Below are positions 17,901 through 39,973 of a stretch of 64,000 nucleotides of DNA, in pieces. Source of the stretch: an uncultured beta proteobacterium. GTDB taxonomy: Bacteria; Pseudomonadota; Gammaproteobacteria; Burkholderiales; Burkholderiaceae_C. The position numbers and the translations under genes are program-made. Location: NCBI GenBank assembly GCA_963840805.1, contig CAWJAJ010000016.1, positions 290,609-354,608 on the forward strand. Reading direction: 5' to 3'. Within the stretch, counting starts at the first letter, position 1, and the number at the start of each line of letters is the position of its first letter. Below the pieces are notes generated by a model, which had not been told where the DNA came from, searched no databases, and worked only from the letters and a program-made list of their open reading frames with translations.

Positions 17901-17916
17901 AAGTGCCGGAGGCTCT

Positions 17917-23595: not shown

Positions 23596-24405
23596 TCAAC
23601 CCTCGCGCAGAACGTCGAGCGTCGCCGCCTTCGCCCGCCGCGCCCATTCGCGGTAGCCCATCGCCGGCGCACGGCTGTCGCTCGGAATCTCGATGCTGAT
23701 GGCGATGTCGGGCGGCAGCCGCGCGAACAAGGCGTGCAGGTCGATGCCGCCCTCGCCCGGCAGCAGCCGCTCGCAGCGCGCGTCGTGGATCAGGCCCTCG
23801 GTGGTCGTCGGGCCGGGCACGGCACCGTCGCACATCTGCGCGTAGTGCAGCCACTCGCGCGGCATGTCGTCGAGCTGGGCCAGTGTGCTGCCCGAGCGCG
23901 CGAAATGCAGCGCATCGACCAGGACGCCGGCGTTCGGCCGCGCCGCCGCGGCGACCACGCGCTTGGCCGTGGCCAGGTCCCTGCACGGCGTCCACGGCAT
24001 GAATTCGAGGTCGGCCGTCAGCCCATAGGGCCGCAGCACGTCGCACAGGGCGGCAAAGCGTTCGGTGAGCCTTGCTTCGTCGGGATCGTCGCCGGCCACC
24101 AGCACATGCGCTGCACCGAGCTGCGCACCGACGTCGAGAAACGGCAGGTACTCGCGCGCGTCGAATGCCGCCCCGATGCGGATGATCTCGAGATCGAGCA
24201 CCTTGACCCCGGTGCCGGCCATCACCGCCAGCGTTTCGCGGAGCATCGGCGCGTTGTCCATCAAGCGGTGCGCGATGCCGCCGGGCGCGGCCGGCAGGAG
24301 GCGCAGGCCGGCCGCAGCACAGCCGGTGTCCGCCGCCAGCTGGATCAATTGCGGCGGGGTGTAGGGCAACGCCATCAGCGCGGCCAGCGAATAGGTGCGT
24401 GTCAT
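23596..24405 (-). CDS. Sugar phosphate isomerase/epimerase (xylose isomerase-like TIM barrel)
   Basis: 269 aa, ATG at 24405. ..VLDLEIIRIG..AHVLVAGDD..DLEFMPWT..VLVDALHFARSG.. pattern of the AP_endonuc_2 family. Confidence 0.75.
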   Translation of the reverse strand: MTRTYSLAALMALPYTPPQLIQLAADTGCAAAGLRLLPAAPGGIAHRLMDNAPMLRETLAVMAGTGVKVLDLEIIRIGAAFDAREYLPFLDVGAQLGAAHVLVAGDDPDEARLTERFAALCDVLRPYGLTADLEFMPWTPCRDLATAKRVVAAAARPNAGVLVDALHFARSGSTLAQLDDMPREWLHYAQMCDGAVPGPTTTEGLIHDARCERLLPGEGGIDLHALFARLPPDIAISIEIPSDSRAPAMGYREWARRAKAATLDVLREG

Positions 24406-26133
24406 TGGGGTGGGTCCTGTGTCGGCGCGGGCAGGCCCGCGGCATGGTGAGCGAGGAGATAGCCGAAGGTCAGCGCCGGGCCGAGCGTGATGCCGCCGCT
24501 GGGGTAATGGCCGCCCATCACGCTGGCCATGTCGTTGCCGGCAGCGTAGAGGCCGTCGATCGTGCGTCCTTCGGCGTCGAGCGCCTGCGCGTGTTGATTG
24601 GTGGCGATGCCGGCGAAGGTGCCGAGGCTGCCCGGCAGGATGCGCACGGCGTAGAACGGCGCGCGCACCAGCGGCGCGACGCAGGGGTTCGGGCCGTCGT
24701 GCTCGGCGTCGCCCTGCATGCGGTCGTACGGCTTGCCGCCGCGATCGAACTGCGGGTCGCGGCCTTCGGCCGCATGGACATTGAAGGTGGCCACGGTCTG
24801 CGCCAGCGCCGACGCATCGATGCCGCAGGCGCGCGCGAGTTCGTCGATCGTGCGGCCGCGTTTCAGGTAGCCGCTGCGCAGCCACGGCCCGAGCGGGAAC
24901 GGCCGGGGCTTGGCATGGCCGAGACCGAAGCGGCGCTGGAAGCGGTGGTCGACGACCAGCCAGGCCTGCACCGGCTCGCCCGGCAGGCGTTGCGCGCAAT
25001 GCGCGAGCAAGCCACGCATGAAGCTGTGATAGTCGCCCGCCTCGTCGACGAATCGGCGGCCGTCGCGCGCCACCGCGATCAGGCCCGGCTTGCCGCGCTC
25101 GACCAGGTGCGGGAACACGCCGACGCTGCCGTCTCGGCGCGGCACCAGCGACACCGGCGCCCAGGCGCCGGCCTCGGCGCCGACGGCAATGCGCGCGCCG
25201 ACGGCCTCGCCCAGGCGCAGCCCGTCACCGTTGTTCTCTTCCGGCGCGGCCGACCAGTGCTCACGCCCGCTCGGCGCGTGCCCGAACAACGCGCGCCTGC
25301 GCTCGGTGTCCTGCGGAAACCCCCCGGCGGCGAGCACCACGCCGCGTCGCGCACGGATCGACCGCACACCGCTCGGCGTGGCGATTTCGGCCCCGGCAAC
25401 CCGCCCGCCCTCGACCAACAAACGCGTCGCACCGTGCGACGCGAACAGCTTCACGCCGCGATCGAGCGCCGATTGCAGCAGCGCCGCGGCCAGCGCATTG
25501 CCGCCCATCAGCACCGTGCCGCGGCCGTGGCGCACGACGTCGAAGGCGTGCCGTGCGATGCGTCGCGCGACATAGGCGAAGGAATCGGCCGCGCGGCTCG
25601 CGCGCAGGAAGTGACGCAGGTCGGCGCCGCCGCCGATGCCCATGCCGAGGAAGGACAGCAGGTCGCGCGGCGCGCGCAGCGTTGCCAGGTGCGGGCCGAG
25701 GCGGCGGCCGTCGAACGGCGCCGCGCAGACCGAGCGGCCGCCGCTGCGGGCCCCCGGCGCGTGGCCGTGGAAATCGGGGATCGCGTTGCCGTCGATGAAG
25801 CGCAGCGCGGTGTGGGCGAGATGGAACTGCACCATCGCCGGCGCGTGGGCCAGGAACGCGTCGACGCGGGCCGGGTCGTACTGCGCGCCGAGCAGATGGC
25901 GCAAATAGGTGCGCGGCGCCGTCGAGGCCCTCGACGATGCCGGCCGCCACCGCCAACGGGTTGCGCGGCAACCACATCCAGCCGCCGGACCAGGCCGTCG
26001 TGCCGCCGAACTGGCTGTGCTTCTCGACCACCACCACGTCGAGGCCGAGGTGCGCGGCGGTGACCGCCGCACCCAGACCGCCGGCGCCGGAGCCGACGAC
26101 CAGCAGGTCGCAAGTCGCCGGCAGATCGCTCAC
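24402..26133 (-). pseudogene. FAD-binding dehydrogenase, paralog 2; one frame shift near 25915
   Basis: GTG at 26133 (VSDLPATCDLLVVGSGAGGLGAAV..EKHSQFGGTTAWSGGWMW). After ..GIVEGLDGA the reading switches frame to RTYLRHLLGAQYDP... up to ..GLYAAGND..GGHYPSGGITLGPA. Confidence 0.8.
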
Positions 26134-26921
26134 GAGGCGACGTAGGCGCGGTTGAACAGCGGCGACGAGCCTGCGGCGTTGGCAATGTCGGCCGCGGCGG
26201 CCAGCAGATCCGGCACCAGCGACTGCATCTTTTCCTCGGTCAGGCGCACCGACGGCCCGGAGATCGCAAGCACGCCGACAGCCCCGCTGTGGCGCGGCAG
26301 GATCGGTGCGGCGATCGCCGACACGCCCTGGCCATAGGTGTCGAAGGTCATCGCATAGCCCTGCTTCCTGGCCTGGCGCAGTGCCTTCAACAGCGCGTTC
26401 GGCGTGGTCGGCGCGTTCGGGCCGTACTCGCTCGGCTTGGCGAAGCCCTGCTTGGCAACGAGCTGCAGCGCATCGCTTTCCGACAGCGTCGACAGCCAGG
26501 CGTGGCCCGACGAAGTGCACGACAGCCGCGCATCGATGCCCTGGTCGGGGTCGTAGCGCAGGCCGGCGCGCGCGCCTTGCGACAGCGAGACCCAGGTGAT
26601 GTGATCGACGTCGACGACGCCCAGGCGCACCAGCTCGCCCGCGGTTTCGGCCAGGCGATCGAGGATCGGCTGGCTCAGGTCGACGACGCCGGAGCGCTTC
26701 AGGTAATTCAGCCCGAGCGACACCACCTTGGTCGTCAGCATGTAGTCGCCGCGCTCGCGCGACTGGCGCACGTAGCCCTGGTCTGTCAGCTCCAGCAACA
26801 GGCGGTGCGCCGCACTGCGCGGGATGTTCAACTCGTCGGCCAGCGTCGCCAGCGGCAGGCCTTCGACGCTCTCGGCCAGTCGCTCGAGGATCGCCAGGGT
26901 TCGTTGCATCACACCGGACAT
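26130..26921 (-). CDS. IclR family transcriptional regulator
   Basis: 263 aa. MQRTLAILERLAES..LPLATLADELNIPRSAAHRLLLEL plus an effector domain. Its stop overlaps the downstream GTG (GTGA). Confidence 0.85.
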   Translation of the reverse strand: MSGVMQRTLAILERLAESVEGLPLATLADELNIPRSAAHRLLLELTDQGYVRQSRERGDYMLTTKVVSLGLNYLKRSGVVDLSQPILDRLAETAGELVRLGVVDVDHITWVSLSQGARAGLRYDPDQGIDARLSCTSSGHAWLSTLSESDALQLVAKQGFAKPSEYGPNAPTTPNALLKALRQARKQGYAMTFDTYGQGVSAIAAPILPRHSGAVGVLAISGPSVRLTEEKMQSLVPDLLAAAADIANAAGSSPLFNRAYVAS

Positions 26922-26952
26922 CGGGAGCCTCCTCGTGGGTGATTCTTCGTTG

Positions 26953-28005
26953 TCACGCGGCCAGCATCACCGGCCGCTGCGTGCGCGCCGACTCGTGCAC
27001 CGCCAGCGTGGCGGCCAGCGTGCGCAGGCCGTCGCGGCCCGAGCAGCGTGGCTGTTCTGCGCCTTCGGCGACGGCGCGGAAGTGCCGCAGCTGCTCGAAG
27101 TACGGATCGGCCACGTGCAGCGCGGCGTGCTCCTGCGTCAGCTCTTCGTGCCAGCCGCGTGCGCCCTTGTAGCGCCAGACTTCGAGGCGCGGCAGCGTCA
27201 GGGACGCCTCGGTGCCGCAGAGGCAGTGAGAGTTCACCGCCTGCTGCGGGTAGTGCGCCGCCTCGCCAGCCGCGAGATCCCAGTGCCAGGGCGCGACGGC
27301 GGCATCGCTGACCGTCACCGTGCCGAGCGCACCATTGGCAAAGCGCAGCAAGACCGCGGCCGTGTCTTCGACCTCGTGGCCGCGCACGGCGTTCGACGTC
27401 ATCGCCTGGACCGAGACGATCTCGCCGAGCAGGTGGCGCAGCAGATCGATGTCGTGGATCAGGTTGATCAGCACCGTGCCGGCGCCGGCCTGGCGACGCC
27501 AGGCGACATCGAAGTAGCTGTCCGGCTTGAGCCAGGTGGCCATCGCGTTCACCGCCACCGGCCGGCCCAGCAGGCCGTCGTCGATCATCGCCTTGGCGCG
27601 GCGGATGATCGCGTTGTGTCGGCGCTGGTGGCCGACCATCAGCGGCACGCCGGCCGCCTCGGCCGCGGCGCACAGGCGCTCGGCGTCGGCCACGTTGTCG
27701 GTGATCGGCTTTTCCATCAGCAGCGGCAGGCCGCCGGCGATGCAGTCGAGGCCGACCGCCAGGTGCGTCGCATTCGGCGTCGCGACGATCACGGCGCCCA
27801 GGCCCGGTTGCGACAGCAATGCGTGGTGGCCGGCAAACCACGGCACGCCGATCGATTCGGCGAAGGCGCGGCCGGCGTCGGTCGGGTCGGCGATGCCCGC
27901 CAAGTGGACGCGGTCGTGGCGCTGGCAGCGCTCGGCGTGCATGCGGCCGATGGCGCCGACACCGACCAGGCCGATCGGGAACGTGGCGGTGGCAGGGCGG
28001 GTCAT
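26953..28005 (-). CDS. Gfo/Idh/MocA family oxidoreductase
   Basis: IGLVGVGAIGRMH Rossmann motif, LMEKPIT motif, GRPVAV..; ATG at 28005. Confidence 0.8.
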   Translation of the reverse strand: MTRPATATFPIGLVGVGAIGRMHAERCQRHDRVHLAGIADPTDAGRAFAESIGVPWFAGHHALLSQPGLGAVIVATPNATHLAVGLDCIAGGLPLLMEKPITDNVADAERLCAAAEAAGVPLMVGHQRRHNAIIRRAKAMIDDGLLGRPVAVNAMATWLKPDSYFDVAWRRQAGAGTVLINLIHDIDLLRHLLGEIVSVQAMTSNAVRGHEVEDTAAVLLRFANGALGTVTVSDAAVAPWHWDLAAGEAAHYPQQAVNSHCLCGTEASLTLPRLEVWRYKGARGWHEELTQEHAALHVADPYFEQLRHFRAVAEGAEQPRCSGRDGLRTLAATLAVHESARTQRPVMLAA

Positions 28006-28040
28006 GTGGCAGGGTTCCATCCGAGGGTTAGCCATCATTA

Positions 28041-28056
28041 TGGAACATCATTCCAC
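28041..28056. promoter_or_regulatory. TGGAA-CATCA-TTCCAC inverted repeat in a divergent promoter region (candidate IclR-type operator)
   Basis: Lies 36 bp upstream of the Gfo/IclR/FAD operon start and 93 bp upstream of the substrate-binding protein (SBP) gene. Same core as 15874-15890. Confidence 0.4.
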
Positions 28057-28148
28057 TATTGAACAAGGGCCCGGTTTGCTGTTAGCATGCGCGCCGAGCG
28101 GCACCGGCTGTCCCGGCCGCCACCCCACCCAACGAGGAGACCCGCCCC

Positions 28149-29291
28149 ATGCGCTCGCTGAAATTTCTCCCTTTCGCCGCCGCGCTCGCGCTGGCCGGCG
28201 CCCCCTTCGCCACCCAGGCCCAGGATGTGATCAAGATCGCCGGCATCTATGAACTGTCGGGCGCAGGCGCCAGCGCCGGCACCTACTTCAAGGACGGCGT
28301 CGAACTCGCCGTGAAGGAAATCAACGCTGCCGGCGGCATCCTCGGCAAGAAGATCGCGACCACGGTCGCCGACACGCAGACCCAGCCCGGCGTGGCCAAG
28401 GGCCTGGCTGCGAAGGCCGTCGACGAAGGCGCGTTCGCCGTCTTCGGCCCGGTGTTCTCGGGCTCGATCATGGTCAGCATGACCGAGACGCGCCGCGCCG
28501 AGATCCCCAACTGGACCGGTGGCGAGGCCGCGGCGATCACTGCCCAGGGCAACCCCTACATCTTCCGCACCGCGTTCGGCCAGTCGGCGTCGTTCCCCAA
28601 GCTCGCGCGCTACATCAACGGCAAGGCCAAGACGCTGGCGGTGATCTACCAGAACAACGACTTCGGCAAGGGCGGGCGCGACACGCTGGTCAAGCTGCTC
28701 GATGGCGGCCCGACCAAGATCATCGCCGAGGTCGCCACCGACCAGGGCCAGATCGACTTCTCGGCGGCGGTGCTGAAGGCCCGGCAGGCCAACGCCGACG
28801 CACTGTTCGTCTACCTGACTGAAGAAGAGTCGGCGCGCGCGCTGCGCGAGATCCGCAAGCAAGGCTACGACAAGCCGATCATCGGCGAGACGGTGCTGAT
28901 CAGCCAGAAGGTGATCGAGCTCGCCGGCGATGCCGCCAACGGCGTCACCGGCCACGTCGGCCTGACGGTCGATGCGCCGAGCCCCGAGATGCTGGCCTTC
29001 AAGGGCAAGTTCTACCAGGCCTACAAGTACATCCCCGACCACAACGGCATCAAGGGCTACATGGGCGTGTACTCGATGAAGGCCGCGATCGACAAGGTCG
29101 GCAAGCTCGACCGCAAGGCGGTGGCCGCGGCGATGCATGGCCTGGAGATCAAGAAGGCCAAGTACCCCGGCATCATCATGGACGTGAGCTTCGACAAGAC
29201 CGGTGAGATCGACCGCGAAAGCTTCATCGTCGAGGTCAAGGGCGGCAAGCAGGTCGTCGTCGCGACGCTGCCGCCGCTGGGCAAGAAGTAA
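28149..29291 (+). CDS. ABC transporter periplasmic substrate-binding protein (Leu/Ile/Val-binding family); no cognate permease or ATPase adjacent
   Basis: 380 aa, intact, with signal peptide. Paralog of 12838-13988. Confidence 0.85.
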   Translation: MRSLKFLPFAAALALAGAPFATQAQDVIKIAGIYELSGAGASAGTYFKDGVELAVKEINAAGGILGKKIATTVADTQTQPGVAKGLAAKAVDEGAFAVFGPVFSGSIMVSMTETRRAEIPNWTGGEAAAITAQGNPYIFRTAFGQSASFPKLARYINGKAKTLAVIYQNNDFGKGGRDTLVKLLDGGPTKIIAEVATDQGQIDFSAAVLKARQANADALFVYLTEEESARALREIRKQGYDKPIIGETVLISQKVIELAGDAANGVTGHVGLTVDAPSPEMLAFKGKFYQAYKYIPDHNGIKGYMGVYSMKAAIDKVGKLDRKAVAAAMHGLEIKKAKYPGIIMDVSFDKTGEIDRESFIVEVKGGKQVVVATLPPLGKK

Positions 29292-29306
29292 CCTGGCAGG
29301 TGCCGC

Positions 29307-30101
29307 GTGTTCGAGGACTTCAGCGGGGCGACCCGCGTCATCTTCATCGTCGGTGATCCGATCGCGCAGGTGAAGTCCCCGGCCGGCGTGACCGAGATGC
29401 TGCGCGCGCGTGGCGCCGACGCGATCGTCGTTCCGGCGCATGTGCTGCCGGTGGACCTGCCGGTATGGATCGCGGCCACCACGCGCATGCGCAACGTCGA
29501 CGGCATCATCGTCACGGTGCCGCACAAGTTCGCCGCCGCGCACCTGTGCAACGAGACCAGCGCGCAGGCCCGCTCGATCGGCGCGGTCAACGTGATGCGG
29601 CGCCATGCCTCGGGCGGCTGGTACGGCGACATGCTCGACGGCGCCGGCTACGTGGCCGGGTTGCGCCAGGCGGGCTGCGGGTTGCAGGGCCGAAGGGCGC
29701 TGCTGGTGGGTGCCGGTGGCGCGGGCTCGGCGATCGCGCACGCGCTGGTCGATGCGGGCATTGCGGGACTGGCGCTGCACGAGGCCGACGACGATCGTCG
29801 CGAGGTGCTCGCGCACAAGCTGGCGCTCTACGGTGCCGTGAAGCCGGCGCGCGGTTCGGCCGACCCGACCGGCTACGACCTGGTCATCAACGCCACGCCG
29901 ATGGGCATGAAAGCCGACGACCCGCTGCCGATCGAGGTCGAGAAGCTTTCCGCCGCGACCTTCGTCGGCGACGTGGTGACGATGCCGGCCGTGCCGCCGC
30001 TGATTGCCGCCGCGCGCGCGCGTGGCTGCGCGACGATGACCGGCGCCGGCATGTTCGAGGCCGTGCGCGATCGCATGGTCGACTTTTTCCTGGAGAGATG
30101 A
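29307..30101 (+). CDS. Shikimate/quinate dehydrogenase family protein (AroE-like), second copy
   Basis: GTG start. TVPHK, MLDGAGY and VGAGGAGSA motifs. Roughly 40% identical by eye to 14031-14885. Confidence 0.8.
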   Translation: MFEDFSGATRVIFIVGDPIAQVKSPAGVTEMLRARGADAIVVPAHVLPVDLPVWIAATTRMRNVDGIIVTVPHKFAAAHLCNETSAQARSIGAVNVMRRHASGGWYGDMLDGAGYVAGLRQAGCGLQGRRALLVGAGGAGSAIAHALVDAGIAGLALHEADDDRREVLAHKLALYGAVKPARGSADPTGYDLVINATPMGMKADDPLPIEVEKLSAATFVGDVVTMPAVPPLIAAARARGCATMTGAGMFEAVRDRMVDFFLER

Positions 30102-30103
30102 TG

Positions 30104-30178
30104 CCCCCACGCTCACTTTCGTTCGCTGCCCCCCGTGGGGGCGCAGGCCTCCCTTGGGGCGGCCCGGCGGGAGGCCTG
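30104..30178. repeat. REP-like palindromic intergenic repeat (same family as 61290-61358 and 63201-63360, opposite orientation)
   Basis: CCCCCACGCTCACTTTCGTTCGCTGCCCCCCGTGGGGGCGCAGGCCTCCCTTGGGGCGGCCCGGCGGGAGGCC aligns with the reverse complement of the 63.2-kb units. It fills the aroE-like/acyl-CoA dehydrogenase spacer. Confidence 0.7.
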
Positions 30179-30180
30179 TG

Positions 30181-31368
30181 ATGCACTTCAGCCTCAGCGA
30201 CGAACAGAAGATGATCATCGACACGGTGCGTCGATTCATCAAGGAAGAGCTCGAGCCGCTCGAAGACGAGGTCGAGGACAGCGGCCGGCTCGACGTGGCC
30301 AAGGCGCAAGCCGTCCACGCGCACGCGAAGTCGCTCGGGCTGTACGCACTGAACATGCCGGCCGAACTCGGCGGCGGCGGTCTCAGCGTGGTCGACCGCA
30401 TGTTGTGCGAAGAGCAGTTCGGCCACACCACCGACATCCTGATCCGCCGCGCCTTCGGCAACGTCTACGAGCCCCTGCTCGAATGCAAGGGCGCGCAGAT
30501 CGAGCGCTGGCTGAAGCCGAGCGTGCGCGGCGAGCGCACCTGCGCCATCGCCATCACCGAGCCCGGCGCCGGCTCCGACGCGCAGGGCATCAAGACCCAC
30601 GCGAAGAAGACCGAAACCGGCTGGGTGCTCAACGGCAGCAAGCATTTCATCAGCGACGGCGAGTGGAGCGACTTCTTCCTCGTCTCGGCCAAGACCGGCA
30701 CCGCCACCGAAGGGGGCGCCCGTGGCGCCGGACAGATCTCGATGTTCATGGTCGACAAGGGCCTGCCCGGCTTCACCGTCGGCAAGGACCAGAAGATGAT
30801 GGGCATCCGCGGCACGCCGCACGTCGAGCTGTTCTTCGACAACGTGCCGCTCGAACCGCTGGCGCTGCTCGGCGAGGAAGGCCAGGGCTTCAAGCTGGCG
30901 ATGGGCGCCCTCAACGTCGTGCGCCTGGGCCAGGTCGGCGCGCGCGCGGTCGGCAAGGCCACGCACGTGCTCGAACTGATGACGGCCTACGCCAACGAGC
31001 GCAAGCAGTTCGGCAAGCCGATCGGCGACTTCCAGATGGTGCAGCAGATGCTGGCCGACAGCGTCATCGAGATCAACGCCGCGCGCCTGATGGTGCTGCA
31101 CGCCGCCTGGATGCTCGATGCCGGCCTGGATGCCCGCGACCACATCGCGATGGTCAAGGTGCACGCCGCCGAAACGCTGGGCCGCGTGGTCGACCGCGGC
31201 GTGCAGGTGTTCGGCGGCATGGGCTTCTGCAAGGAGCTGCCGATCGAGCGCTACTACCGCGATGCGCGCATCTACCGCATCTTCGACGGCACCTCCGAGA
31301 TCCACCGCACGGTGATCGCGCGCAGCGTGATGAAGAAGGGCGCTGCACTCTTCGACCTGCATCGATGA
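30181..31368 (+). CDS. Acyl-CoA dehydrogenase
   Basis: 395 aa, intact. ..AITEPGAGSD.., ..YRDARIYRIFDGTSEIHR.. Confidence 0.9.
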   Translation: MHFSLSDEQKMIIDTVRRFIKEELEPLEDEVEDSGRLDVAKAQAVHAHAKSLGLYALNMPAELGGGGLSVVDRMLCEEQFGHTTDILIRRAFGNVYEPLLECKGAQIERWLKPSVRGERTCAIAITEPGAGSDAQGIKTHAKKTETGWVLNGSKHFISDGEWSDFFLVSAKTGTATEGGARGAGQISMFMVDKGLPGFTVGKDQKMMGIRGTPHVELFFDNVPLEPLALLGEEGQGFKLAMGALNVVRLGQVGARAVGKATHVLELMTAYANERKQFGKPIGDFQMVQQMLADSVIEINAARLMVLHAAWMLDAGLDARDHIAMVKVHAAETLGRVVDRGVQVFGGMGFCKELPIERYYRDARIYRIFDGTSEIHRTVIARSVMKKGAALFDLHR

Positions 31369-32946
31369 AATCGAAATTCGTCTCTGCCGACGAGGCCGCC
31401 GCCCTCGTCAATGACGGCGACACGCTGGCCCTGATGGGCGGCGGCGGCGGCCTGATGGAAGCCACCGGCCTGTTCCAGGCCATCGAGCGCCGCTTCCTCG
31501 GCACGCAGCGGCCGCGCGATCTGACGCTGGTGCACGCGCTGGGCATCGGCGACAAGAAGACGCGCGGCATGAACTGCTTCGCCTACGAAGGCCTGGTCAA
31601 GCGCGTGATCGGCGGGCACTGGCCCTGGTCGCCGCGCATGCAGCAGCTGGCGCTGGAGGACAAGATCGAGGCCTACATCCTGCCCGGCGGCGTGTCGTCC
31701 CAGCTGCTGCGCGAGATCGGCGGCGGCCGGCCGGGCCTGTTCACGCACGTCGGGCTGGGCACGGTGTGCGACCCGCGCCTGGGCGGCGGGCGCATGAACG
31801 CCCGCGCGAAGGACGACCTGGCCGAGGTCGTCACGGTCGACGGCCGCGAATTCCTGCGCTACAAGCCCTACGCGGTGAACGTGGCCCTGGTGCGCGCTTC
31901 GGCGGCCGACGAGGACGGCAACATCAGCTTCGAGCACGAGGCGGCCAATCTCGATGCCACCGCCATCGCGCTGGCCGCACGCACCAGCCGCGGCAAGGTG
32001 ATCGTGCAGGTCAAGGAGCGGCTGCCGCGTGGGGCGCTGAAGGCGCGCGAAGTGCGCATCCCTGCCGCCTGGGTGGACGCCATCGTCGTCGATCCCGGCC
32101 AGCGCACCAGCTACGACATCCCCTTCGACGCCACGCTGTCGGGCGAGTTGACGGGGCCGCAGCGCTTCGCGGCCGACGTGCACGGCGCGCCGGACGACGA
32201 GCCGTTCAACGAGCGTCAGGCCGTGGCGCGGCGCGCGGCCTGCGAGCTGTTCGAGGGCGCCGTCGTCAACTACGGTGTCGGCGTGCCGGATGCGGTGGCC
32301 AAGCTGGTGGCGCGGCGCGGCGAGCTCGACCGCATCTACCAGACCATCGAACATGGCACCTATGGCGGCAGCCTGCTCGATGGCGTGCTGTTCGGCTACG
32401 CGAGCAACGCCAGCGCGATGCTCGACGCACCGACGCAATTCGACTTCTACGCCGGCGGCGGCCTCGACCTGGCCTTCCTCGGCTTCGGCGAGTTCGACGC
32501 CGAGGGCAACGTCAACGTGTCCCGGCTCGGCGGCCTGACGGTCGGGCCGGGCGGCTTCATCGACATCGCGCAGAACGCGCGCAAGGTCGTGTTCTGCGGC
32601 ACCTTCGCCGCCAAGGGCGTGAAGCTCGAAACCGGCGACGGCACGCTGCGGGTACTGAAGCAAGGCGCCGTGCGCAAGCTGGTGCCGCGGGTCGAGCAGA
32701 TCACCTTCAGCGGGCCGCAGGCGCTGCGGCGCGGCCAGCGCGCGCTGTACCTGACCGAGCGCGCGAGCTTCCGGCTCACGCCGCAAGGCATGGAACTGTT
32801 CGAGATCGCCCCCGGCATCGACCTGCAGCGCGACGTGCTCGACCAGATGGACTTCGTGCCGCGGCTGGCACCGACGCATCGCCGTGATGCCGGCGTCGCA
32901 CTTCCGTCGCGACGACGACCGGCTCGGCGCCCTGGCCACGCGATGA
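31365..32946 (+). pseudogene. Acyl-CoA:acetate/3-ketoacid CoA-transferase (YdiF-like), one frame shift near 32872
   Basis: ATGA overlap with the acyl-CoA dehydrogenase stop. MKSKFVSADEAAALVNDGDTLALMGGGGG... The last ~25 codons (RIAVMPASHFRRDDDRLGALATR*) are in another frame and end in an ATGA overlap with the next gene. Confidence 0.8.
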
Positions 32947-33826
32947 AGGCCCTGATCACCGGCGGCGGGTTCCTCGGCCGGCGCCTCGCGCATGCGCTGC
33001 GCGCACGGGCCATCGCGGTCCGGATCCTGGACGTGGCGCCGGCACCCGAGGCCATCGAGGCTGCCGGCATCGAGTGGCAGCAGGGCGATGTGTCCACGCC
33101 CGACGACGTGTCGCGCGCCTTGCGCGGCTGCAGCCAGGTCGTGCACCTGGCTGCGCTGCTGACGCCCGCCTGCGCCGCGCAGCCGCTGCGCGGCGCGCAG
33201 GTCAATCTGCTCGGCACGCTGAACGTGTTCGAAGCGGCGCGTGGCGCCGGCCTCGGGCACGTGGTCTATGCCAGCAGCGCCGGCGTCTACGGGCCCGACG
33301 ACGCCACGCAACCGCGGCCGACCACGCTGTACGGCACCTGGAAGCTCGCCGCCGAAGGCATCGCGCGGGCCTACTGGGCCGACCACGGCATCGGCAGCGT
33401 CGGCCTGCGGCCCTTCGTCGTCTACGGCGCCGGGCGCGAGGTCGGCCTCTCGAGCGGCCCGAGCCTGGCCTGCCGCGCCGCCGCGCGCGGCGAGGCCTAC
33501 ACGATCCCGTTCACCGGACGCACCGGTCTGGTCTACGTCGACGATGTCGTGCGCGCCTTCGCCGCGGCGCTGACACCGGCGCAAGGTGGCGCCTTCGCCT
33601 TCGACCTGCCCGGCGTGGTCGCATCGATGGACCAGCTGATCGCCGAGATCCGCCGGCAGGTGCCCGCGGCCCGCATCGACGCGAAGGGCCCGCCGCTGCC
33701 GATCGCCGCCGACATCGCGATGCCGGACACGAGCGCCGTGCTCGGCAGCGCAACCCGATCACCCCGCTCGCCGACGGCGTCGCCGCCACGCTGGCGGCCT
33801 GCCGAACGAACGGCCCGACCGCCTAG
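32943..33826 (+). pseudogene. NAD-dependent epimerase/dehydratase family protein, one frame shift near 33750
   Basis: MKALITGGGFLGRRL (GxxGxxG), YGTWK (YxxxK). The C-terminal tail RNPITPLADGVAATLAACRTNGPTA* is in a different frame. Confidence 0.8.
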
Positions 33827-33834
33827 GAATCGCC

Positions 33835-34449
33835 ATGCCCATCGTCCACGAACTCACCACGCTGGAGATCAAGGTCTTCAGCAACGCCAATGTTTATGCC
33901 GCGCTCGAGAAGAGCCTGCCGGCCGCCGGCGGCAAGCTGCTCGGTGCCTTCGCGTCCGACATCGGCGAGTTGAGCCGTGTGTTGGTGCTGCGCGAGTTCG
34001 CCAGTGCCGATGAGCTGGCCGACGCGCGCCTGGCGATGCTGATGGCAGACAACCCGCTCGGCGTCGGCGAGTGGCTGGTCAAGCTGCAAAGCGAGAGCTA
34101 TGCGCTGTTCCCGTTCCTGCCGCCGGTGCAGACCGGCGCGGTCGGCAAGTGGTACGAGTTCCGCACCTACAGCATCCGCCAGGGCGTGCTGGCGCAGACC
34201 ATCGACGCCTGGCGGGACGCCGTGCCGAAGCGCACCGTGCTGTCGCCGATGATCGGCGCGTTCACCGCGCTCGACGGCGAGCAGCCGCGCTTCCTCAACA
34301 TCTGGGCCTACCAGAGCGTCGACGAGCGCGCGCGGATTCGCGCCGAGGCCGTCAAGCTGGGCGTCTGGCCGCCGCAGGGCGGGCCGGCGAACCTGACGAA
34401 GATGACCTCGACCTTGTGCGCGCCGGTGCCGTTCTCGCCCATGAAGTAG
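33835..34449 (+). CDS. NIPSNAP family protein (two tandem NIPSNAP-like halves)
   Basis: 204 aa. ..LRVLVLREFASADE.. and ..YEFRTYSIRQG..FLNIWAYQSVDERARIR.. Confidence 0.75.
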   Translation: MPIVHELTTLEIKVFSNANVYAALEKSLPAAGGKLLGAFASDIGELSRVLVLREFASADELADARLAMLMADNPLGVGEWLVKLQSESYALFPFLPPVQTGAVGKWYEFRTYSIRQGVLAQTIDAWRDAVPKRTVLSPMIGAFTALDGEQPRFLNIWAYQSVDERARIRAEAVKLGVWPPQGGPANLTKMTSTLCAPVPFSPMK

Positions 34450-34537
34450 CGCTGTCGCCTGTCCGGGGCCGGCGATGCTGCGCCAGAATGACCGGTCCGC
34501 CAACTCCCGACCGCGGCACGAGACGCGGGCACCTGCC

Positions 34538-35606
34538 ATGCCGACCACCACCGCCCCGCGCCGTCCGCTGCACATCGGCATCCTCGGCTGCGCCAACATC
34601 GCCAAGCAGTTTTCGCGCGACGTGGCGCCGAGCCCGGCGGTGCGCATCGTCGCGGTGGCCAGCCGCAACGCCGACACGGCAGCGGCCTTCGCCGCGGCGC
34701 AAGGCATCGGCCGCCATCACGGCAGCTACGAGGCCCTGCTGGCCGACGCCGACGTCGATGCCATCTACCTGCCGCTGCCCAACAGCCTGCACGCCGAGTG
34801 GGCGATCAAGGCCGCCGCGAGCGGCAAGCATGTGCTGTGCGAGAAGCCGCTGGCGCTCGGCCACGCCGAGGCGCAAGGCGATGTTCGACGCCGCGCGGCG
34901 CCATCGCGTGATGCTGCTCGAGGCCTACCCGTACTACTTCCAGCCGCAGACCGGCGCGCTGGTGGCGCTGTTGAACGAAGGCGCCATCGGCACGGTGCGC
35001 TCGATGCAGTCGTGCTTCGGCTTCACGGTGTCCAACCCGCAAGCCAACATCCGCATGAAGCCCGAACTCGGCGGCGGTGCGCTGCTCGACGCCGGCAGTT
35101 ATGCGCTGAGCGTGATCCGGCTGGTGATGGGCTGCGCGCCGCAGCGCGTGCGGGCCGATGCCACCTGGGCCGACAGCGGCGTGGACATCAGCCTGATGGC
35201 GACGCTGTACTTTGCCGACGGCCGCCGCGCGCAGCTGTCGTGCGCGATGGATGCGGCCAACCACCGCCGCGCCACCATCGTCGGCAGCGCCGGCACGATC
35301 GAGACCGAATACTTGAACCACACCGGCGCGCTGGCCGGCGGCCGACCGGACAACGCCTACGGCTACCTGCCCAGCCAGTTGCGCGTGCGCCGCGGCACCG
35401 CCAACACGATCCCGTTCGAGGACATCCAATGCGGCAGCGGCAGCGGCTTTCGCTTCGCGGCCGAGGCCTTTGCCCGGGTGGTCGCCGAAGCGGACTTCGC
35501 GGCCATCGAGCGCGCGGCGCAGGCCAGCCTGGACATCGCCGCCACGCTGGAGGCGCTGGCGCGCAGCGCGCGGCTCGGGCATGCGGTGGACGTGGCGGCC
35601 GACTGA
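34538..35606 (+). pseudogene. Gfo/Idh/MocA family oxidoreductase (second copy), one frame shift near 34870
   Basis: LHIGILGCANIAKQF.., HVLCEKPLAL, then the frame switches to ..MFDAARRHRVMLLEAYPYYFQP... Confidence 0.8.
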
Positions 35607-35816
35607 CGCGGTTTCGTCTTCGAACAGGGGCGCTCAGGTGTCCCAAAACCCTTGACAGTAGCGGCCGGTGAATGGGCACGGTGATCGGGCTGCCGCGCGG
35701 CCAGCTCACACTGACCCGGCGCGCCGCAGTGCGGGCATTGAGCATTCGCAATCGGCGTAGGAGCGCCGCTGCAATGATCCCTGAACCGGGCGACCGGCGG
35801 TGTCAGCGGGGCGGAA

Positions 35817-36818
35817 ATGAAGATGCATGCAGGATGCGAGCGCGGAAGACTGGCCGCGGCGGCGCTTGCAGTGGCGGGTTTGCTGGTGGCCGGCTGCGGC
35901 ACGACACCGGGCAGAGACAAACCGCTCGAAGCCATCTTTGAGGCCGTGGCCTCTCCCGACGGCAGGCTGATTGCCGCATCGACGATCTATGACGAGGTGG
36001 CCCTGTTCGATCGCGCGCCGCTCAGGTTCGCAGCGATGCTCTCGCGGGAGACCGACCGGCACGAGTGGCGTGCGAAAGATCCACAGAAGAGACCGTTTCC
36101 CCACTTCTCGAGCCCCCTGCTGGCGTTCACGCCCGATGGAACGACGCTCGTGGCCGCCGGGATTGCGGGGCGACTCGTGGCCTGGGACCTGACCTCGCGC
36201 ACGGAGAAGTACCGCGTCGAGGTGGGCGACGGCGTGCTCGCGATGGCGGTCACGCCCAACGGGCTGGAGATCGTGACCGCTGGACCGGACACGGTTGTCT
36301 GGAGCGCGAAGAATGGTTCGCGGACGGGGCAGCTCACGCTTCCAGCCGGCACGCAGGCCATGTCAGTCGCGGTCTCTCCCGATGGACGGGTCGCGCTGGT
36401 CGGGCTCTCTGACGGGCGCATCGCAGTGTTCGAAGTGGCGTCCCGGCAACTGCTGCGGACGCTGCCGGGGCACTCGATGCCGGTGTATGGCGTGGCCTTC
36501 TCGCCCGACGGGTCGATGTTTGCGAGCACTGCGGGGCAGTACGACCCACGGGTCTGGAAGGCCGACCCGATGGGCGAGTTCACGACCGGCGAACGGGCTG
36601 CGGCACCGGCCGCGGCCGGCGAGGGTTGTTGCTCCGGTGCGAATGCTGGCAAGGAGCACTTGGCCACGACCGTGCCACTCAGACGGACTTGCGTTCGATC
36701 GCAATGGGTCGTCCGCCTGCGCGTGCCGAGGCAGTGGCGGTTTGCACCCGGCGTTGGCGCCGACCGAAATCAATTGGCGACGACGCGGAGCAGCAGCCAC
36801 ACCGGCAGGCCGAGGTAG
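35817..36818 (+). CDS. WD40/beta-propeller-repeat lipoprotein; 3' end uncertain
   Basis: Lipobox LLVAGCG. Repeated ..SPDG..L(V/I)A.. blades (VASPDGRLIAAS, AFTPDGTTLVAAG, AVTPNGLEIVTAG, AVSPDGRVALVG, AFSPDGSMFAST). The last ~60 codons look non-protein-like and overlap the convergent gene. Confidence 0.6.
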   Translation: MKMHAGCERGRLAAAALAVAGLLVAGCGTTPGRDKPLEAIFEAVASPDGRLIAASTIYDEVALFDRAPLRFAAMLSRETDRHEWRAKDPQKRPFPHFSSPLLAFTPDGTTLVAAGIAGRLVAWDLTSRTEKYRVEVGDGVLAMAVTPNGLEIVTAGPDTVVWSAKNGSRTGQLTLPAGTQAMSVAVSPDGRVALVGLSDGRIAVFEVASRQLLRTLPGHSMPVYGVAFSPDGSMFASTAGQYDPRVWKADPMGEFTTGERAAAPAAAGEGCCSGANAGKEHLATTVPLRRTCVRSQWVVRLRVPRQWRFAPGVGADRNQLATTRSSSHTGRPR

Positions 36819-39199
36819 AGCGCCGCGAGGCCGAGGCGCTCGAGCCAGCGCCGGGTGCCAATGGCCTGTCCGGGGCGCAGCAGCACCGCCACCAGCGTGC
36901 CGGCTTCGATCGCCGCGCGCAACGCCGCGGCGCACAGCACGACGCCGATCGCCCAGGCGGCCCACCAGAGCGCAAAGGTCGTGAGGTAAGCCAACAGGCC
37001 GAACGTGTAGTACTCGCCAAAGGCGCTGCCGTACGCGATGTGCTGGTGCAGGCGGAACGCCGGAATTGCGAGCGCGAACGGGAACAGGACGAATTTCGCG
37101 AGCGGTTGGTCAAGGCGCCCGCGCCGGATGGCCTGCCGGGCTTGCGCATACGTCGTCGCGCGCGAGGGCGTGCTTGCCTGCGCCGCGGCGCCACCGGCCG
37201 CGGCCAGCGCCCGGGCCAAGGCCGTGGGATCGGCGTGAGCGAGCCCGTACCGCCAGCGCTCGCCGGAGGCCAGCCGCAGCCAGGCGCCGGGGCCGGGGAT
37301 GGGCACGCGCCACGGCTCGACGGCGACGATGTCCCGCACCGCGAGTTCGAGACGCCGCGCGCCGCGTGTGAGCACGAGCGCGCCATTTTCGATGGAGGCC
37401 CGCGCGGCAAAGGCGAGCAGCACGCACCACGCGGCGGCCTCGGGGGCCAGAAAGAGGGCGGCGAAAGTGCGTATTTGGACGAGCGTGTTCGACTGCAAGG
37501 AACCATCGCCTCGCAGTGCCGCCGCGGCCATCCAGAGCAGGCTGCCGCGCGCGAAGGCACGCAGCAGGCCTGCAGCGAGGCGGGCGGCGGGCGGCAGCAC
37601 GGCGACGTCGGCAGGGACGCCTGCGGCAACGACCGATGCCGACGCTTCTTCCGCGTTTCGAGTGCGCCACATGCGCAACGCCGCCGTCGCAGCCAGCAGC
37701 ACGAGGAACGCCGTGCCGGCGCGCCCGACCCAATCGCCCCAGGCCACCATCAGCGTGCGCGGCGGCTCCTGCACCGGTACCTCCCCGACCACCAGCGTGC
37801 GTTCGCCCATGCGCGTCGCGGCGATCACGCTGCCGGTCGCATCGATCACGGCGCTGTAGCCGTTCGTGGTGACGCGGAATTGGGGCAGGCGCGTTTCGAT
37901 GCTGCGGAACGCCGCCGCGGCCTGGTGCAGTTCAGCACCCTGCGGGTCGGCGGTGAACCAGGAGTCGTTCGACAGGGTCAGGATGGCCTGCCCGCCCAGC
38001 CGGGCCCCGTCGATGACGAGGCCGGTATCCATGTCGTCGAGGCAGATCAACGGAATCACCGGGATCTCGCGGCCGTCTGCGAGGCGCAGCGGGAACACGC
38101 GCGCGCCGGTGCCCGGCCGCCAGGTGCCGGCCCACGGCAGCCAACGCCGGAGCGTCGGCCCGTCGAGCCACGCGGGCACATGCTCGGTGAGCGGGAAGAC
38201 GCGCGTCTTGCGATAGAAGCCGAGCAGGCCCGTGCCGGGCGCCACGAACGCGGCGGCGTTGTATTCGCCGGCCGCATCGCGGTCGTAGGTGCCGAACACG
38301 AACGGCACCGCGGCGGCATTGACGATGCCCAGGATCTCGCGGTCGAGTTCGGCGCCGGCCTCGCTCTTGGGCTGGCCGAAGGTGGTGGGGTACACCGTCT
38401 CCGACCACAGCACTGCGTCCGCGTGCTGCCGCTCGACGGCGTCGTAGCTCATCGCGTAGTGCGTGTCGAGCACTTCGCGAACGACCGCGCCGGCGCCCTT
38501 CTCCCGGCGCAGGCGCTCGTAGTCGACGATGTTCGACTGCACCAGTCCCATGCGCAGGGGCTTGCCGCCCGGCGCGGGCGTGGCTGAGAGCACGGCGAGG
38601 CCGTAACCCGCCAGCAGCAGGGGCACCAGCGCGGCAAGCGCCAGCGGCGTCGCCATCGCGCGGACGCCGTCAGCCCGTCGCGCGAGCGCCGCCGAGATGC
38701 CTTCGTTGGCCAGCAGCAGCAGGACCGTGAGGCCCGCCGCGCCGCCGACATCGGCGGCCTGGCGCAGCAGTCGAGACGGATAGAGCCCGTAGCCGAGCGT
38801 GTCGCCGAGGAGCCTGGGCACGAGCCATTCCGTCGCGACCCATGCCGCGGCGCCGGCGAGCGCGCGCAGCACGGTGCCGTGCCGTTGGCCGGTGACGTGG
38901 CGCACCAGCGCGAAGGCGAGGAATTGCGGCTGGAACAGCGGCGCGGCAAGGAGCAGTACCGCCAGGCCTGCGGCAGTGCCGAGCTGCGTGTAACTGCCGA
39001 TCGCGGTGCCGAACCAGGCGAAGACCGCCGCCGTGTAGGCGACCGACATCGCGCAGGCGCTGAGGAGCGTGCCCGCGAGCGTTCGGTTCGCGTCGAGTGT
39101 GCGCAACCACGGCACGAGGGCTACGAAGCCGAGCAGCCAGCCGGCGCCGCCGCGGGCGTACAGGAACGACAGGAACGCGCTGGCGAGAATGCCAGCCAA
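36770..39199 (-). CDS. Apolipoprotein N-acyltransferase (Lnt)-like CN-hydrolase membrane protein with a ~295-aa C-terminal multi-TM extension
   Basis: Multi-TM N-terminal domain. CN-hydrolase triad candidates are VLWSETV (Glu), FYRKTRVFPLTEHVP (Lys) and IPLICLDD (Cys). A canonical terminal TM is followed by 295 further residues. Start uncertain (TTG 39199 or CTG 39241). Confidence 0.7.
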   Translation of the reverse strand: MAGILASAFLSFLYARGGAGWLLGFVALVPWLRTLDANRTLAGTLLSACAMSVAYTAAVFAWFGTAIGSYTQLGTAAGLAVLLLAAPLFQPQFLAFALVRHVTGQRHGTVLRALAGAAAWVATEWLVPRLLGDTLGYGLYPSRLLRQAADVGGAAGLTVLLLLANEGISAALARRADGVRAMATPLALAALVPLLLAGYGLAVLSATPAPGGKPLRMGLVQSNIVDYERLRREKGAGAVVREVLDTHYAMSYDAVERQHADAVLWSETVYPTTFGQPKSEAGAELDREILGIVNAAAVPFVFGTYDRDAAGEYNAAAFVAPGTGLLGFYRKTRVFPLTEHVPAWLDGPTLRRWLPWAGTWRPGTGARVFPLRLADGREIPVIPLICLDDMDTGLVIDGARLGGQAILTLSNDSWFTADPQGAELHQAAAAFRSIETRLPQFRVTTNGYSAVIDATGSVIAATRMGERTLVVGEVPVQEPPRTLMVAWGDWVGRAGTAFLVLLAATAALRMWRTRNAEEASASVVAAGVPADVAVLPPAARLAAGLLRAFARGSLLWMAAAALRGDGSLQSNTLVQIRTFAALFLAPEAAAWCVLLAFAARASIENGALVLTRGARRLELAVRDIVAVEPWRVPIPGPGAWLRLASGERWRYGLAHADPTALARALAAAGGAAAQASTPSRATTYAQARQAIRRGRLDQPLAKFVLFPFALAIPAFRLHQHIAYGSAFGEYYTFGLLAYLTTFALWWAAWAIGVVLCAAALRAAIEAGTLVAVLLRPGQAIGTRRWLERLGLAALYLGLPVWLLLRVVAN

Positions 39200-39237
39200 C
39201 AGCCGACCGCCGCGCAGAGGAAATGACGCGGTGGTGG

Positions 39238-39973
39238 TCAGCTCCCGGGTCTCCCCGGTTCGGTCGGCGCAGGGATCACGATGCGTCGGATCGGCAAGCC
39301 GGGCGGGGCGAGCTCCGGCGGCACGACGCGGTCCTTCGGGATCGCGATCGGTTGGTTGGCGGCGTCGAAGAATTGGTGGTCCGGGCGAGTACATCAGGAT
39401 CGGCTCGATGCGCTGGCCGTCGTCGGTCGCCTGGTAATGACGGACGTAGCCTTCGGGGAGCACGAAATCCTCGGGCACCGCGAGCCCGACCAGGGGCGGG
39501 CGGGTGCCGGGCGGTGAGAAGGCGCCGAGGCCGGAATGGACGCCGGCCTGGTGCAGGCGCTCGATCACCTCGGCCATCGTCGGTCGCTCGCCCTTGTTGA
39601 CGAAGTCGGAGATGTCAGGCGTCAAGTCGCCGTCCGGGTCGCGCGTGCGCGATATCTGCTGCGTCGCGGCAGGAGCCGGACCGCTCGCTGCAGCCACTGG
39701 CCGTGCCGGGGCGGCGGGAGCCGCGCTGCTCGCCGCGGCCGCTGCGCTTACCGGCGCGGCGGCCGTCGCACTGCTCGCCGCGACCGCCAACGTTGCCTGG
39801 GTTGCGGTGTCGTCGGCGACCGACACCGGCGTCCGGGACGACAACAATCCATAGGCGAGGCCGCCTGCGACGATCGCCAGCGCGATGGCGAGGTAGCCCA
39901 GAGACGGGCGCCACGGCCGACTTCCGGCGACCGGATCGGTCGGCGTCGGGCCAGAACGACGCGGCCCGTCCAT
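39238..39973 (-). pseudogene. Hypothetical membrane-anchored (N-in, single TM) protein with an Ala/Pro-rich linker; one extra base near 39385 fuses it to the downstream gene in the ORF track
   Basis: MDGPRR..LGYLAIALAIVAGGLAYGLL (TM). Globular part is DISDFVNKGERPTMAEVIERLHQAGV... Removing one G restores ..MYSPDHQFFDAANQPIAIPKDRVVPPELAPPGLPIRRIVIPAPTEPGRPGS*. Confidence 0.6.

Follow-up and report, generated by a model that had tools for sequence, protein, structure and literature searches.

The 64,000-nucleotide stretch of DNA analysed here (the window) comes from an uncultured beta proteobacterium and carries, at 23596-35606, a cluster of two divergent gene runs. With moderate confidence, these runs are read as IclR-controlled catabolic operons, assembled from two separable modules, whose substrate would be a carboxylic acid of quinate/shikimate type, alicyclic or hydroaromatic. 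Module A contains an AroE-like dehydrogenase, a Gfo/Idh/MocA oxidoreductase, an IclR-family regulator, a KstD-like flavoprotein, a NIPSNAP protein and a TIM barrel, with or without a solute-binding protein. Module B is formed by an acyl-CoA dehydrogenase (ACAD) and a YdiF-like CoA-transferase. A first-pass annotation had proposed an undescribed CoA-dependent route of hydroaromatic or cyclitol-like character. Because the core genes are co-conserved, share a promoter palindrome, reach no equivalog model and recur beside quinate/shikimate genes, a hydroaromatic and not yet described route is a fair reading. The CoA chemistry proved optional to the cluster, and "cyclitol-like" has less support than "hydroaromatic carboxylate".

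Gene layout and intactness

Genes in the window were found by combining a listing of open reading frames (ORFs), codon-position GC and a Pfam scan. All eleven gene families that the first-pass annotation had placed in two divergent operons were recovered in position by Pfam. The features of the cluster are as follows:

23596..24405, minus strand: xylose-isomerase-like TIM barrel of module A (AP_endonuc_2), a putative dehydratase or isomerase
24402..26133, minus strand: KstD-like FAD dehydrogenase (flavoprotein) of module A; FAD_binding_2 over two frames, surplus base near 25918
26130..26921, minus strand: IclR-family regulator (HTH_IclR and IclR_C)
26953..28038, minus strand: Gfo/Idh/MocA oxidoreductase 1 (Gfo1) of module A, with three Gfo/Idh/MocA Pfam domains
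28041..28055, no strand: palindrome TGGAACATCATTCCA in the divergent promoter gap, a putative IclR operator
28149..29291, plus strand: periplasmic solute-binding protein of the LIV family (Peripla_BP_6); permease not adjacent
29307..30101, plus strand: AroE-like dehydrogenase of the 4k28 subfamily, module A (Shikimate_dh_N, PF08501)
30104..30178, no strand: dispersed repeat of ~75 bp, BRE-like, in the AroE-like/ACAD gap (found by word depth)
30181..31368, plus strand: ACAD of module B, with three ACAD Pfam domains
31365..32946, plus strand: family-I fused CoA-transferase, YdiF-like, of module B (CoA_trans); surplus base near 32876
32943..33826, plus strand: NAD-dependent epimerase/dehydratase-family protein, an extended short-chain dehydrogenase/reductase (SDR), with Epimerase and 3Beta_HSD; two surplus bases within 33747-33758
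33835..34449, plus strand: two-domain NIPSNAP protein of module A (NIPSNAP in two stretches)
34475..35606, plus strand: Gfo/Idh/MocA oxidoreductase 2 (Gfo2); domains in two frames, surplus base at 34874-34878

The genes are packed operon-like on both strands. Neighbouring genes share a four-base overlap of start and stop codon at the junctions IclR/flavoprotein (GTGA) and flavoprotein/TIM barrel, ACAD/CoA-transferase and CoA-transferase/epimerase (ATGA in each case). The remaining intergenic gaps measure 8-31 nt, the exception being the AroE-like/ACAD gap, which is filled by the repeat. Gfo1 likely begins at Met-12 (28005), relatives aligning only from residue 20.

Four genes switch frame in the raw window, namely the flavoprotein, the CoA-transferase and the epimerase (both at the C-terminus) and Gfo2, and the CoA-transferase and epimerase are there read as a single ORF of 1292 amino acids (aa). 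Logan contigs from four metagenome runs of four studies (freshwater and sediment) were aligned to 25800-35700, with 92-99+% identity. The base at 25918 in the flavoprotein is absent from contigs X1, X3 and X10, the base at 32876 in the CoA-transferase from X1 and X2, two bases within 33747-33758 in the epimerase from X1, X2 and X3, and one base at 34874-34878 in Gfo2 from contigs of all four runs. The codon phases demand the removal of exactly 1, 1, 2 and 1 bases, respectively, and the contigs match. Since they lack exactly the frame-restoring bases, the shifts are surplus bases of the assembly, and natural populations carry intact genes. Strain-specific mutation at the four switches is conceivable, as the contigs derive from close relatives and possibly from the source sample too, but it is unlikely because all four switches coincide (4/4). 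True pseudogenes were rejected, as short-read contigs from the four studies are free of surplus bases at all four switches. A CoA-transferase-epimerase fusion was likewise rejected; with the base near 32876 discounted, the TGA stop of the former overlaps the ATG of the latter. The families and places of the first-pass gene models therefore stood, their four apparent frameshifts turned out to be surplus assembly bases, and the ACAD start is now set at ATG 30181.

Beyond the cluster, many genes of the window are split or merged across frames, for example at 632-1426, 9443-14030, 46388-49261 and 60770-62647, a pattern that frequent single-base insertion errors in the assembly would explain. Annotation of this genome will report too many pseudogenes and fusions. 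The repeat at 30104-30178 has a word depth of 224-1022 against ~15-30 nearby; 37 more copies are spread over the genome, one of which overlaps the repeat inside paaE (61290-61358). Contigs of X3 and X10 join 30092 directly to 30178, so some strains are without the repeat.

Conservation, promoter palindrome and quinate/shikimate neighbours

Related loci were collected with the CoA-transferase as anchor. A scan of one genome per species yielded 296 relatives, and the best 80 of the 296 were examined by tblastn with the window proteins. These 80 orthologues are 74-86% identical and all belong to Burkholderiales, and 49 of their loci extend for at least 8 kb on both sides (full-flank loci). Carriers among named isolates include Variovorax, Curvibacter, Limnohabitans, Polaromonas, Hydrogenophaga and Pseudacidovorax, and further Sphaerotilus, Ideonella, Rubrivivax, Xenophilus and Cupriavidus. 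Many Burkholderiales of fresh water and soil thus share the cluster, and cultured carriers include Sphaerotilus mobilis DSM 10617, Ideonella livida TBM-1, Variovorax sp. 770b2, Pseudacidovorax intermedius DSM 21352, Polaromonas jejuensis NBRC 106434, Hydrogenophaga aromaticivorans D2P1 and Cupriavidus sp. TMH.W2. The ACAD gene is present in 49/49 full-flank loci (75-85% identity), the TIM barrel in 37, IclR in 36, the AroE-like gene in 35, the flavoprotein in 29, and NIPSNAP (usually directly after the FAD gene) and Gfo1 in 28 each. The epimerase gene occurs in 3/49, at a distance, the binding protein in 3/49 of these CoA-transferase-anchored loci, and Gfo2 in 0/49, with no tblastn match to Gfo2 in all 80 related loci or in five loci of congeners. 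The 12 kb can thus no longer be regarded as a single unit, as the first-pass annotation had it, but as two modules. Three of the eleven genes (epimerase, binding protein and Gfo2) are local additions, the binding protein being present in congeners as well.

The commonest arrangement, that of Comamonadaceae, has the AroE-like gene on the minus strand, divergent from Gfo, IclR, FAD, NIPSNAP, TIM, ACAD and CoA-transferase in this order. Sphaerotilus mobilis and Ideonella livida have TIM, FAD and (IclR) on the minus strand, divergent from AroE-like, ACAD, CoA-transferase and NIPSNAP, with unrelated flanks, and still other orders are found in Variovorax and Cupriavidus. The core genes keep their adjacency through these several layouts, so the synteny in Burkholderiales by which the first-pass annotation had wished its proposal to be judged is indeed there. 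All-against-all clustering of the ORFs of the 80 loci gave no additional family in more than 13 loci. In an even class-wide draw, the AroE-like protein had a match at E <= 1e-40 in 1/399 other genomes; as this draw included only two family genomes, it carries little information on the range of the protein.

Regulation of both runs from the central gap is suggested by a palindrome. The pattern TGGAA-N5-TTCCA has two copies in the window, at 28041 in the promoter gap and at 15875 between the paralogous IclR2 and FAD2 genes, and 12 copies in 1.42 Mb of related loci, where base composition predicts ~0.3. All copies in these loci are intergenic, beside an AroE-like, IclR, Gfo or TIM gene or immediately upstream of ACAD (loci L022, L030 and L076). 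This distribution supports one regulon able to include module B. The palindrome TGGAACATCATTCCA may resemble the E. coli IclR box, and its place in the promoter gap, together with a regulator bearing HTH_IclR and IclR_C, would fit an IclR-regulated operon. A general promoter and terminator scan was uninformative, with 0 promoter-like sites and with 9 terminator-like ones where shuffled sequence gave 5.3 +/- 2.3. The second window copy belongs to a paralogous module at 9440-18729, with an ABC ATPase/permease, a second solute-binding protein (SBP2, 12924-13955, 72% identity) and AroE-like2 (14103-14879, 37%) on the minus strand, and IclR2 (14994-15812), FAD2 (15897-17687, 38%) and an SDR on the plus strand. 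The ABC transporter of this module may serve the cluster's binding protein, which has no permease of its own beside it.

The neighbourhood of the relatives points to quinate and shikimate. Markers of their metabolism lie within 10 kb in 19/49 full-flank loci, with a type I dehydroquinase (DHQase I) or QuiC1-like gene among them in 11/49. Recurrent neighbours are type I dehydroquinase, QuiC1-like AP_endonuc_2+HPPD genes and SDH_C-bearing shikimate/quinate dehydrogenases, joined by TRAP and TctC transporters and by genes of LigB/LigC type. A canonical dehydrogenase comes immediately after the CoA-transferase in several Limnohabitans loci. The window genome carries LigB-type dioxygenases, one set of which immediately precedes another AroE-like paralogue, and its PcaH-type match is below the cut-off. 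No dehydroquinase domain was found in 20.9-40 kb, and a DHQase I query had no match in the window. Outside the window, the genome also has a type I dehydroquinase beside two further TIM-barrel paralogues (40-43%) and the AroE-like paralogue after LigB (genome G000, C16:405000-424856, locus L109, and C15:353722-357520).

The immediate flanks of the cluster are unrelated: the upstream genes encode a GATase, a CMD protein and a methyltransferase, the downstream ones a WD40 protein and an Lnt-like protein. The Lnt-like ORF (36770-39973, 1067 aa), in which LNT_N begins at residue 277 and CN_hydrolase at residue 505, either bears a long N-terminal extension or, in this high-GC DNA, has been called too long. 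As the first-pass annotation had mentioned, pob and paa genes are present in the region. PobA (42947-44188) lies ~7 kb from the cluster and scores 678 bits against TIGR02360 (cut-off 538.7), PobR is also located beyond the cluster, and PaaA/C-type genes occupy 62425-63998. A Mem_trans carrier and PobR/PobA (42017-45265) stand beside a further module at 46039-50025, consisting of NIPSNAP, a KstD-like flavoprotein, an SDR and an AraC regulator. Its flavoprotein scores 569/900 bits against ChcC2 and its SDR 130/350 bits against ChcB2. It looks like a candidate module from hydroxycyclohexanecarboxylate to 4-hydroxybenzoate, nearer to the chc pathway than the studied cluster.

Enzyme families and proposed chemistry

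The flavoprotein resembles ring desaturases. Its 503-aa fragment gives 713.5 bits with NCBIfam PRK06134 and 406.5 bits with ChcC2 NF053677, where the equivalog cut-off of 900 is not reached (1.5e-121), and the KstD equivalogs NF009478 (374/789) and NF005882 (351/788) are missed by the fragment and by intact paralogues as well. FAD_binding_2 is matched at profile positions 1-62 and 61-414 in the two frames, with GxGxxG present as VVGSGAGG. An ortholog profile matches the 3-oxosteroid 1-dehydrogenase of PDB 7p18 at 3e-125. The active-site tyrosines of KstD1 are Tyr119, Tyr318 and Tyr487. Two of the three are kept in the flavoprotein, those of L-P-Y-D-Q-F and of P-F-Y-A, and PDYY is replaced by PDFH in 22/22 sequences.

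A KstD-type desaturase, a 3-beta-HSD-like enzyme of the epimerase family and an ACAD could also form a fragment of steroid or terpenoid ring degradation. We regard this as very improbable, although the best solved relative of the flavoprotein is a 3-oxosteroid 1-dehydrogenase and the epimerase-family protein does match 3Beta_HSD. The KstD equivalog models remain far below cut-off (for a fragment), the change from PDYY to PDFH affects all 22 aligned members, other steroid-degradation families are absent from 20.9-40 kb by Pfam, and the epimerase-family gene is not co-conserved with the cluster.

The TIM barrel (267 aa) may be a dehydratase or an isomerase. Its profile matches Lmo2234 (2e-15), IolI (2e-8) and 5hmq (1.5e-7) in the PDB, the last a TIM-barrel/HPPD fusion, the dehydroshikimate dehydratase QuiC1. 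A Foldseek search with its predicted model (pLDDT 93.8) returned Lmo2234 at TM 0.81-0.83, IolI at 0.81 and 5hmq at 0.79-0.81 (20% identity), with AsbF (3dx5) only at rank 29 (TM 0.74); the HPPD-like domain is absent.

The closest solved relative of the AroE-like protein is PDB 4k28, a "shikimate dehydrogenase family protein" (profile match of 217 bits, 3e-63). Both share the subfamily, the PIAQVKSP motif (G-S-P-I-A-Q-V-K-S-P in 4k28) and the Lys and Asp positions. Invariant in 26 sequences are PIAQVKSP, VTVPHK and D-x-x-DG, of which the latter two align with S-M-P-N-K and N-T-D-G of YdiB and hold the Lys/Asp pair typical of shikimate and quinate dehydrogenases. 4k28 is RifI2 of Pseudomonas putida, for which no physiological substrate is known. 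Pfam finds no SDH_C domain in the AroE-like protein, whereas canonical copies in related loci have SDH_C, and the NCBIfam models of AroE and YdiB all stay below cut-off (best 126.5/295).

Of the remaining module A proteins, Gfo1 scores 154 bits against the IolG (inositol 2-dehydrogenase) model, whose cut-off is 355. In the PDB the binding protein finds generic Leu/Ile/Val-type binders only (1e-13 to 6e-19). A protein-atlas comparison placed the NIPSNAP protein with NIPSNAP clusters only, and a complex prediction of flavoprotein and NIPSNAP scored 0.00 and was used neither way.

A cyclitol or keto-sugar route with a non-carboxylate substrate (inositol-like, deoxy-inositol-like or a 3-keto-sugar) would account for inositol 2-dehydrogenase being the best NCBIfam model of Gfo1, for the IolI match of the TIM barrel, for the membership of a 5-ketofructose reductase (7cok) in the shikimate-dehydrogenase family, and for the part of the canonical carboxylate motif that is missing from the AroE-like protein. 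Nevertheless, Pfam finds no kinase, aldolase or sugar-type transporter in the cluster, the binding protein is of the LIV/organic-acid type, and the CoA-transferase and ACAD require a carboxylate. Together with the quinate/shikimate and protocatechuate genes that neighbour the relatives, this makes a cyclitol route distinctly unlikely.

The ACAD passes the cut-offs of PF02771, PF02770 and PF00441, and a PDB search places it about equally distant from many solved ACADs. Its NCBIfam scores are below cut-off for AcrC NF042972 (283/640), cyclohexane-1-carbonyl-CoA dehydrogenase NF043006 (241/650) and TIGR03207 (173/575). The CoA-transferase is of the fused family-I type, matching YdiF 2ahu in the PDB at 1.6e-127 over residues 6-503 and E. 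coli YdiF at 42% identity over 499 residues. Its T-I-E-H-G aligns with T-V-E333-T-G of YdiF, retaining the Glu that is catalytic in YdiF.

From these families a course of reactions can be proposed for the hydroaromatic-acid reading. The binding protein of module A would serve in uptake of the acid, the AroE-like and Gfo enzymes would oxidise ring hydroxyls to ketones with NAD(P), and the KstD-like flavoprotein would introduce a double bond adjacent to the ketone, as in the chc pathway. The TIM barrel would dehydrate or isomerise the ring, as dehydroshikimate dehydratase or IolI does. The product may be aromatic, for example protocatechuate or 4-hydroxybenzoate, with a possible outlet through the nearby PobA and the LigB-type dioxygenases elsewhere. 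Module B would transfer CoA to the ring carboxylate, place a C1=C2 double bond by way of the thioester and recycle the CoA; as no hydratase or thiolase follows module B, the recycling is probably done by the transferase itself. Module B would thereby open saturated analogues to the pathway, such as acids of the dihydroshikimate or dihydroxycyclohexanecarboxylate type.

Modularity, known systems and wider meaning

The two modules are found apart in nature. In 24 sampled congeners the best CoA-transferase matches are only 47-51% identical, and one such paralogue (48%) has no other cluster genes nearby (ACAD, AroE-like and TIM checked). TIM-barrel homologues of 64-67% identity occur in 9/29 congeners. 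An initial conclusion that the cluster is absent from the genus was corrected, as these homologues sit in module A clusters devoid of module B. Five congener loci were fetched, of which four contain module A, in full in three of the four. Congener G045 has TIM, FAD and IclR on the minus strand, divergent from the binding protein, AroE-like, NIPSNAP and Gfo1, and in G009 a QuiC1-like gene abuts Gfo1, NIPSNAP, AroE-like and binding protein on the minus strand, divergent from IclR, FAD, TIM and TIM. G007 retains NIPSNAP, AroE-like, FAD and TIM only, and G017 looks degraded. The binding protein is 86-87% and NIPSNAP 68-69% identical in the congener clusters. Tandem TIM-barrel copies after the flavoprotein gene (locus L107 of G009 at 9163-10730, and L108 of G023 at 9466-10967) are 64% and 52-59% identical to the window copy. 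In the light of the congener loci and of loci with the ACAD-CoA-transferase pair alone, the cluster is module A into which three genes, ACAD, CoA-transferase and epimerase (30181-33826), are inserted after the AroE-like gene and ahead of NIPSNAP, Gfo2 being a further extra.

Several points weigh against the hydroaromatic-acid reading or the unity of its modules. The related loci are kin and their counts not independent, so that the counts overstate independence, and the CoA-transferase is sparse, reaching at least 77% identity in 11/300 evenly drawn family genomes. No cluster protein attains an NCBIfam equivalog cut-off, and every reaction is consequently inferred. The AroE-like protein reads A-Q-V-K-S-P in place of H-S-x-S-P, and since the first Ser of the carboxylate-binding motif is missing, a carboxylate substrate cannot be taken for granted. 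At the position where IYEGTSE stands in five solved ACADs, the cluster ACAD reads IFDGTSEI. The Asp of FDGT/YDGT is kept in 74/75 orthologous ACAD high-scoring pairs (window and L018-L097); the Glu of YEGT is the catalytic residue in MCAD/SCAD, and Asp at this position could still act as base. The five congener loci showed no copy of the palindrome pattern, and the operator may therefore differ among carriers. ACAD, CoA-transferase and epimerase are present in 0/5 congener loci, and the ACAD-CoA-transferase pair stands alone with a divergent LysR gene in 8/49 loci (for example L018, L019, L021 and L071), and elsewhere with only a Gfo gene. Since module A occurs without B and B without A, the CoA steps need not act on the same compound. 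Moreover, the ACAD and CoA-transferase are 75-86% identical among relatives and module A about 50-70%, which suggests a history partly independent of module A.

These last findings would also suit modules A and B as functionally unrelated neighbours, with B activating and oxidising a short-chain acid of the propionate, butyrate or acrylate type and A alone being the ring-acid pathway. The LysR-linked lone pair, its presence in 49/49 full-flank loci against 28-37 for module A genes, its better conservation and the congeners having module A without it all agree with this view, as do its best NCBIfam models, AcrC (acryloyl-CoA reductase) and Staphylococcus FadX, neither of which reaches its cut-off. 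Anaerobic fatty-acid oxidation has been linked with ydiO and fadK of E. coli. We nonetheless consider this view unlikely. The adjacency to module A outlasts several rearranged gene orders, and here, in Sphaerotilus and in Ideonella the pair lies within one operon between AroE-like and NIPSNAP, with overlapping codons. Furthermore, the cluster palindrome stands immediately upstream of ACAD in L022, L030 and L076, loci without module A often neighbour quinate/shikimate rather than fatty-acid genes, and the conserved Asp-for-Glu exchange distinguishes the ACAD from solved short-chain enzymes.

The hydroaromatic-acid reading places the cluster near several known systems. The gene run ydiN-ydiB-aroD-ydiF-ydiO of E. 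coli K-12 (ydiB-ydiO being b1692-b1695) also has a shikimate-dehydrogenase paralogue, a fused family-I CoA-transferase and an ACAD side by side, and module B of relatives adjoins a type I dehydroquinase as aroD does in E. coli. However, the cluster ACAD is 30% identical to YdiO and the AroE-like protein 25% to YdiB, and the ydi run lacks a KstD-like flavoprotein, NIPSNAP, TIM barrel and IclR and has the ETF-like ydiQRST and fadK instead. To our knowledge, the physiological role of the ydi run is unsettled. The classical qui/qsu route takes quinate and shikimate to protocatechuate through a dehydrogenase, a dehydroquinase and QuiC1/QsuB/AsbF. It shares with the cluster a shikimate-dehydrogenase-family enzyme and a TIM barrel related to 5hmq, and is often IclR-regulated. 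In contrast, the cluster has no dehydroquinase, its AroE-like protein is of the 4k28 subfamily with no SDH_C and the first Ser missing, its TIM barrel has no HPPD-like domain and is ~20% identical to 5hmq, and its flavoprotein, Gfo enzymes, NIPSNAP, ACAD and CoA-transferase would have no role in the classical route.

The chc pathway of Sinomonas cyclohexanicum (NF053676, NF053677 and NF053701) uses a ring alcohol dehydrogenase and KstD-type desaturases to convert hydroxycyclohexanecarboxylate into 4-hydroxybenzoate for PobA. The cluster flavoprotein matches the ChcC2 model at 1.5e-121 and PobA is near, but the scores are 406.5/900 and 249/1000, there is a single flavoprotein with no P450 or SDR in the cluster, the dehydrogenases are of AroE-like and Gfo types, and the TIM barrel and CoA chemistry are extra. 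CoA-dependent cyclohexanecarboxylate routes comprise bad/ali of Rhodopseudomonas and Aromatoleum and, in Geobacter, a CoA-transferase with two ACADs. Degradation of this type (PMC9795900) is alike in that a ring carboxylate becomes a CoA thioester and is desaturated at 1,2 by an ACAD. Models of this same step (cyclohexane-1-carbonyl-CoA dehydrogenase) match the cluster ACAD at 1.7e-71 and 9.8e-51 (241/650 and 173/575). Unlike these routes, the cluster has no hydratase, hydroxyacyl-CoA dehydrogenase or ring hydrolase, and its transferase belongs to family I (YdiF type). A literature search that did not extend to subscription papers or to the supplements of preprints turned up no description of such a cluster and nothing on the catabolism of dihydroshikimate- or dihydroxycyclohexanecarboxylate-type acids.

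Dihydroshikimate and 3,4-dihydroxycyclohexanecarboxylate are products of quinate/shikimate reduction in fermentation, known from older work on lactobacilli. A more specific and rather doubtful proposal is that modules A and B together perform an undescribed aerobic re-aromatisation of such reduced hydroaromatic acids to protocatechuate, through two alternative double-bond insertions, one adjacent to a ketone by the KstD-type enzyme and the other adjacent to a thioester by the Asp-type ACAD fed by the YdiF-type transferase. If this were true, a testable function within hydroaromatic metabolism could be assigned to the long-unexplained E. coli linkage ydiB-aroD-ydiF-ydiO.

The cluster gathers several functionally open enzymes, namely the 4k28-type subfamily, bacterial NIPSNAP, a non-steroid KstD-like flavoprotein, an Asp-type ACAD and YdiF-type transferases. 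As cultured carriers exist, their role is directly testable. Quinate, shikimate and their reduced derivatives are plentiful plant-derived carbon in soils, sediments and fresh water, which are the habitats of the runs holding this stretch. The recurrence of the cluster in named isolates, with no characterised orthologue for any of its enzymes, points to a gap in the map of hydroaromatic catabolism.

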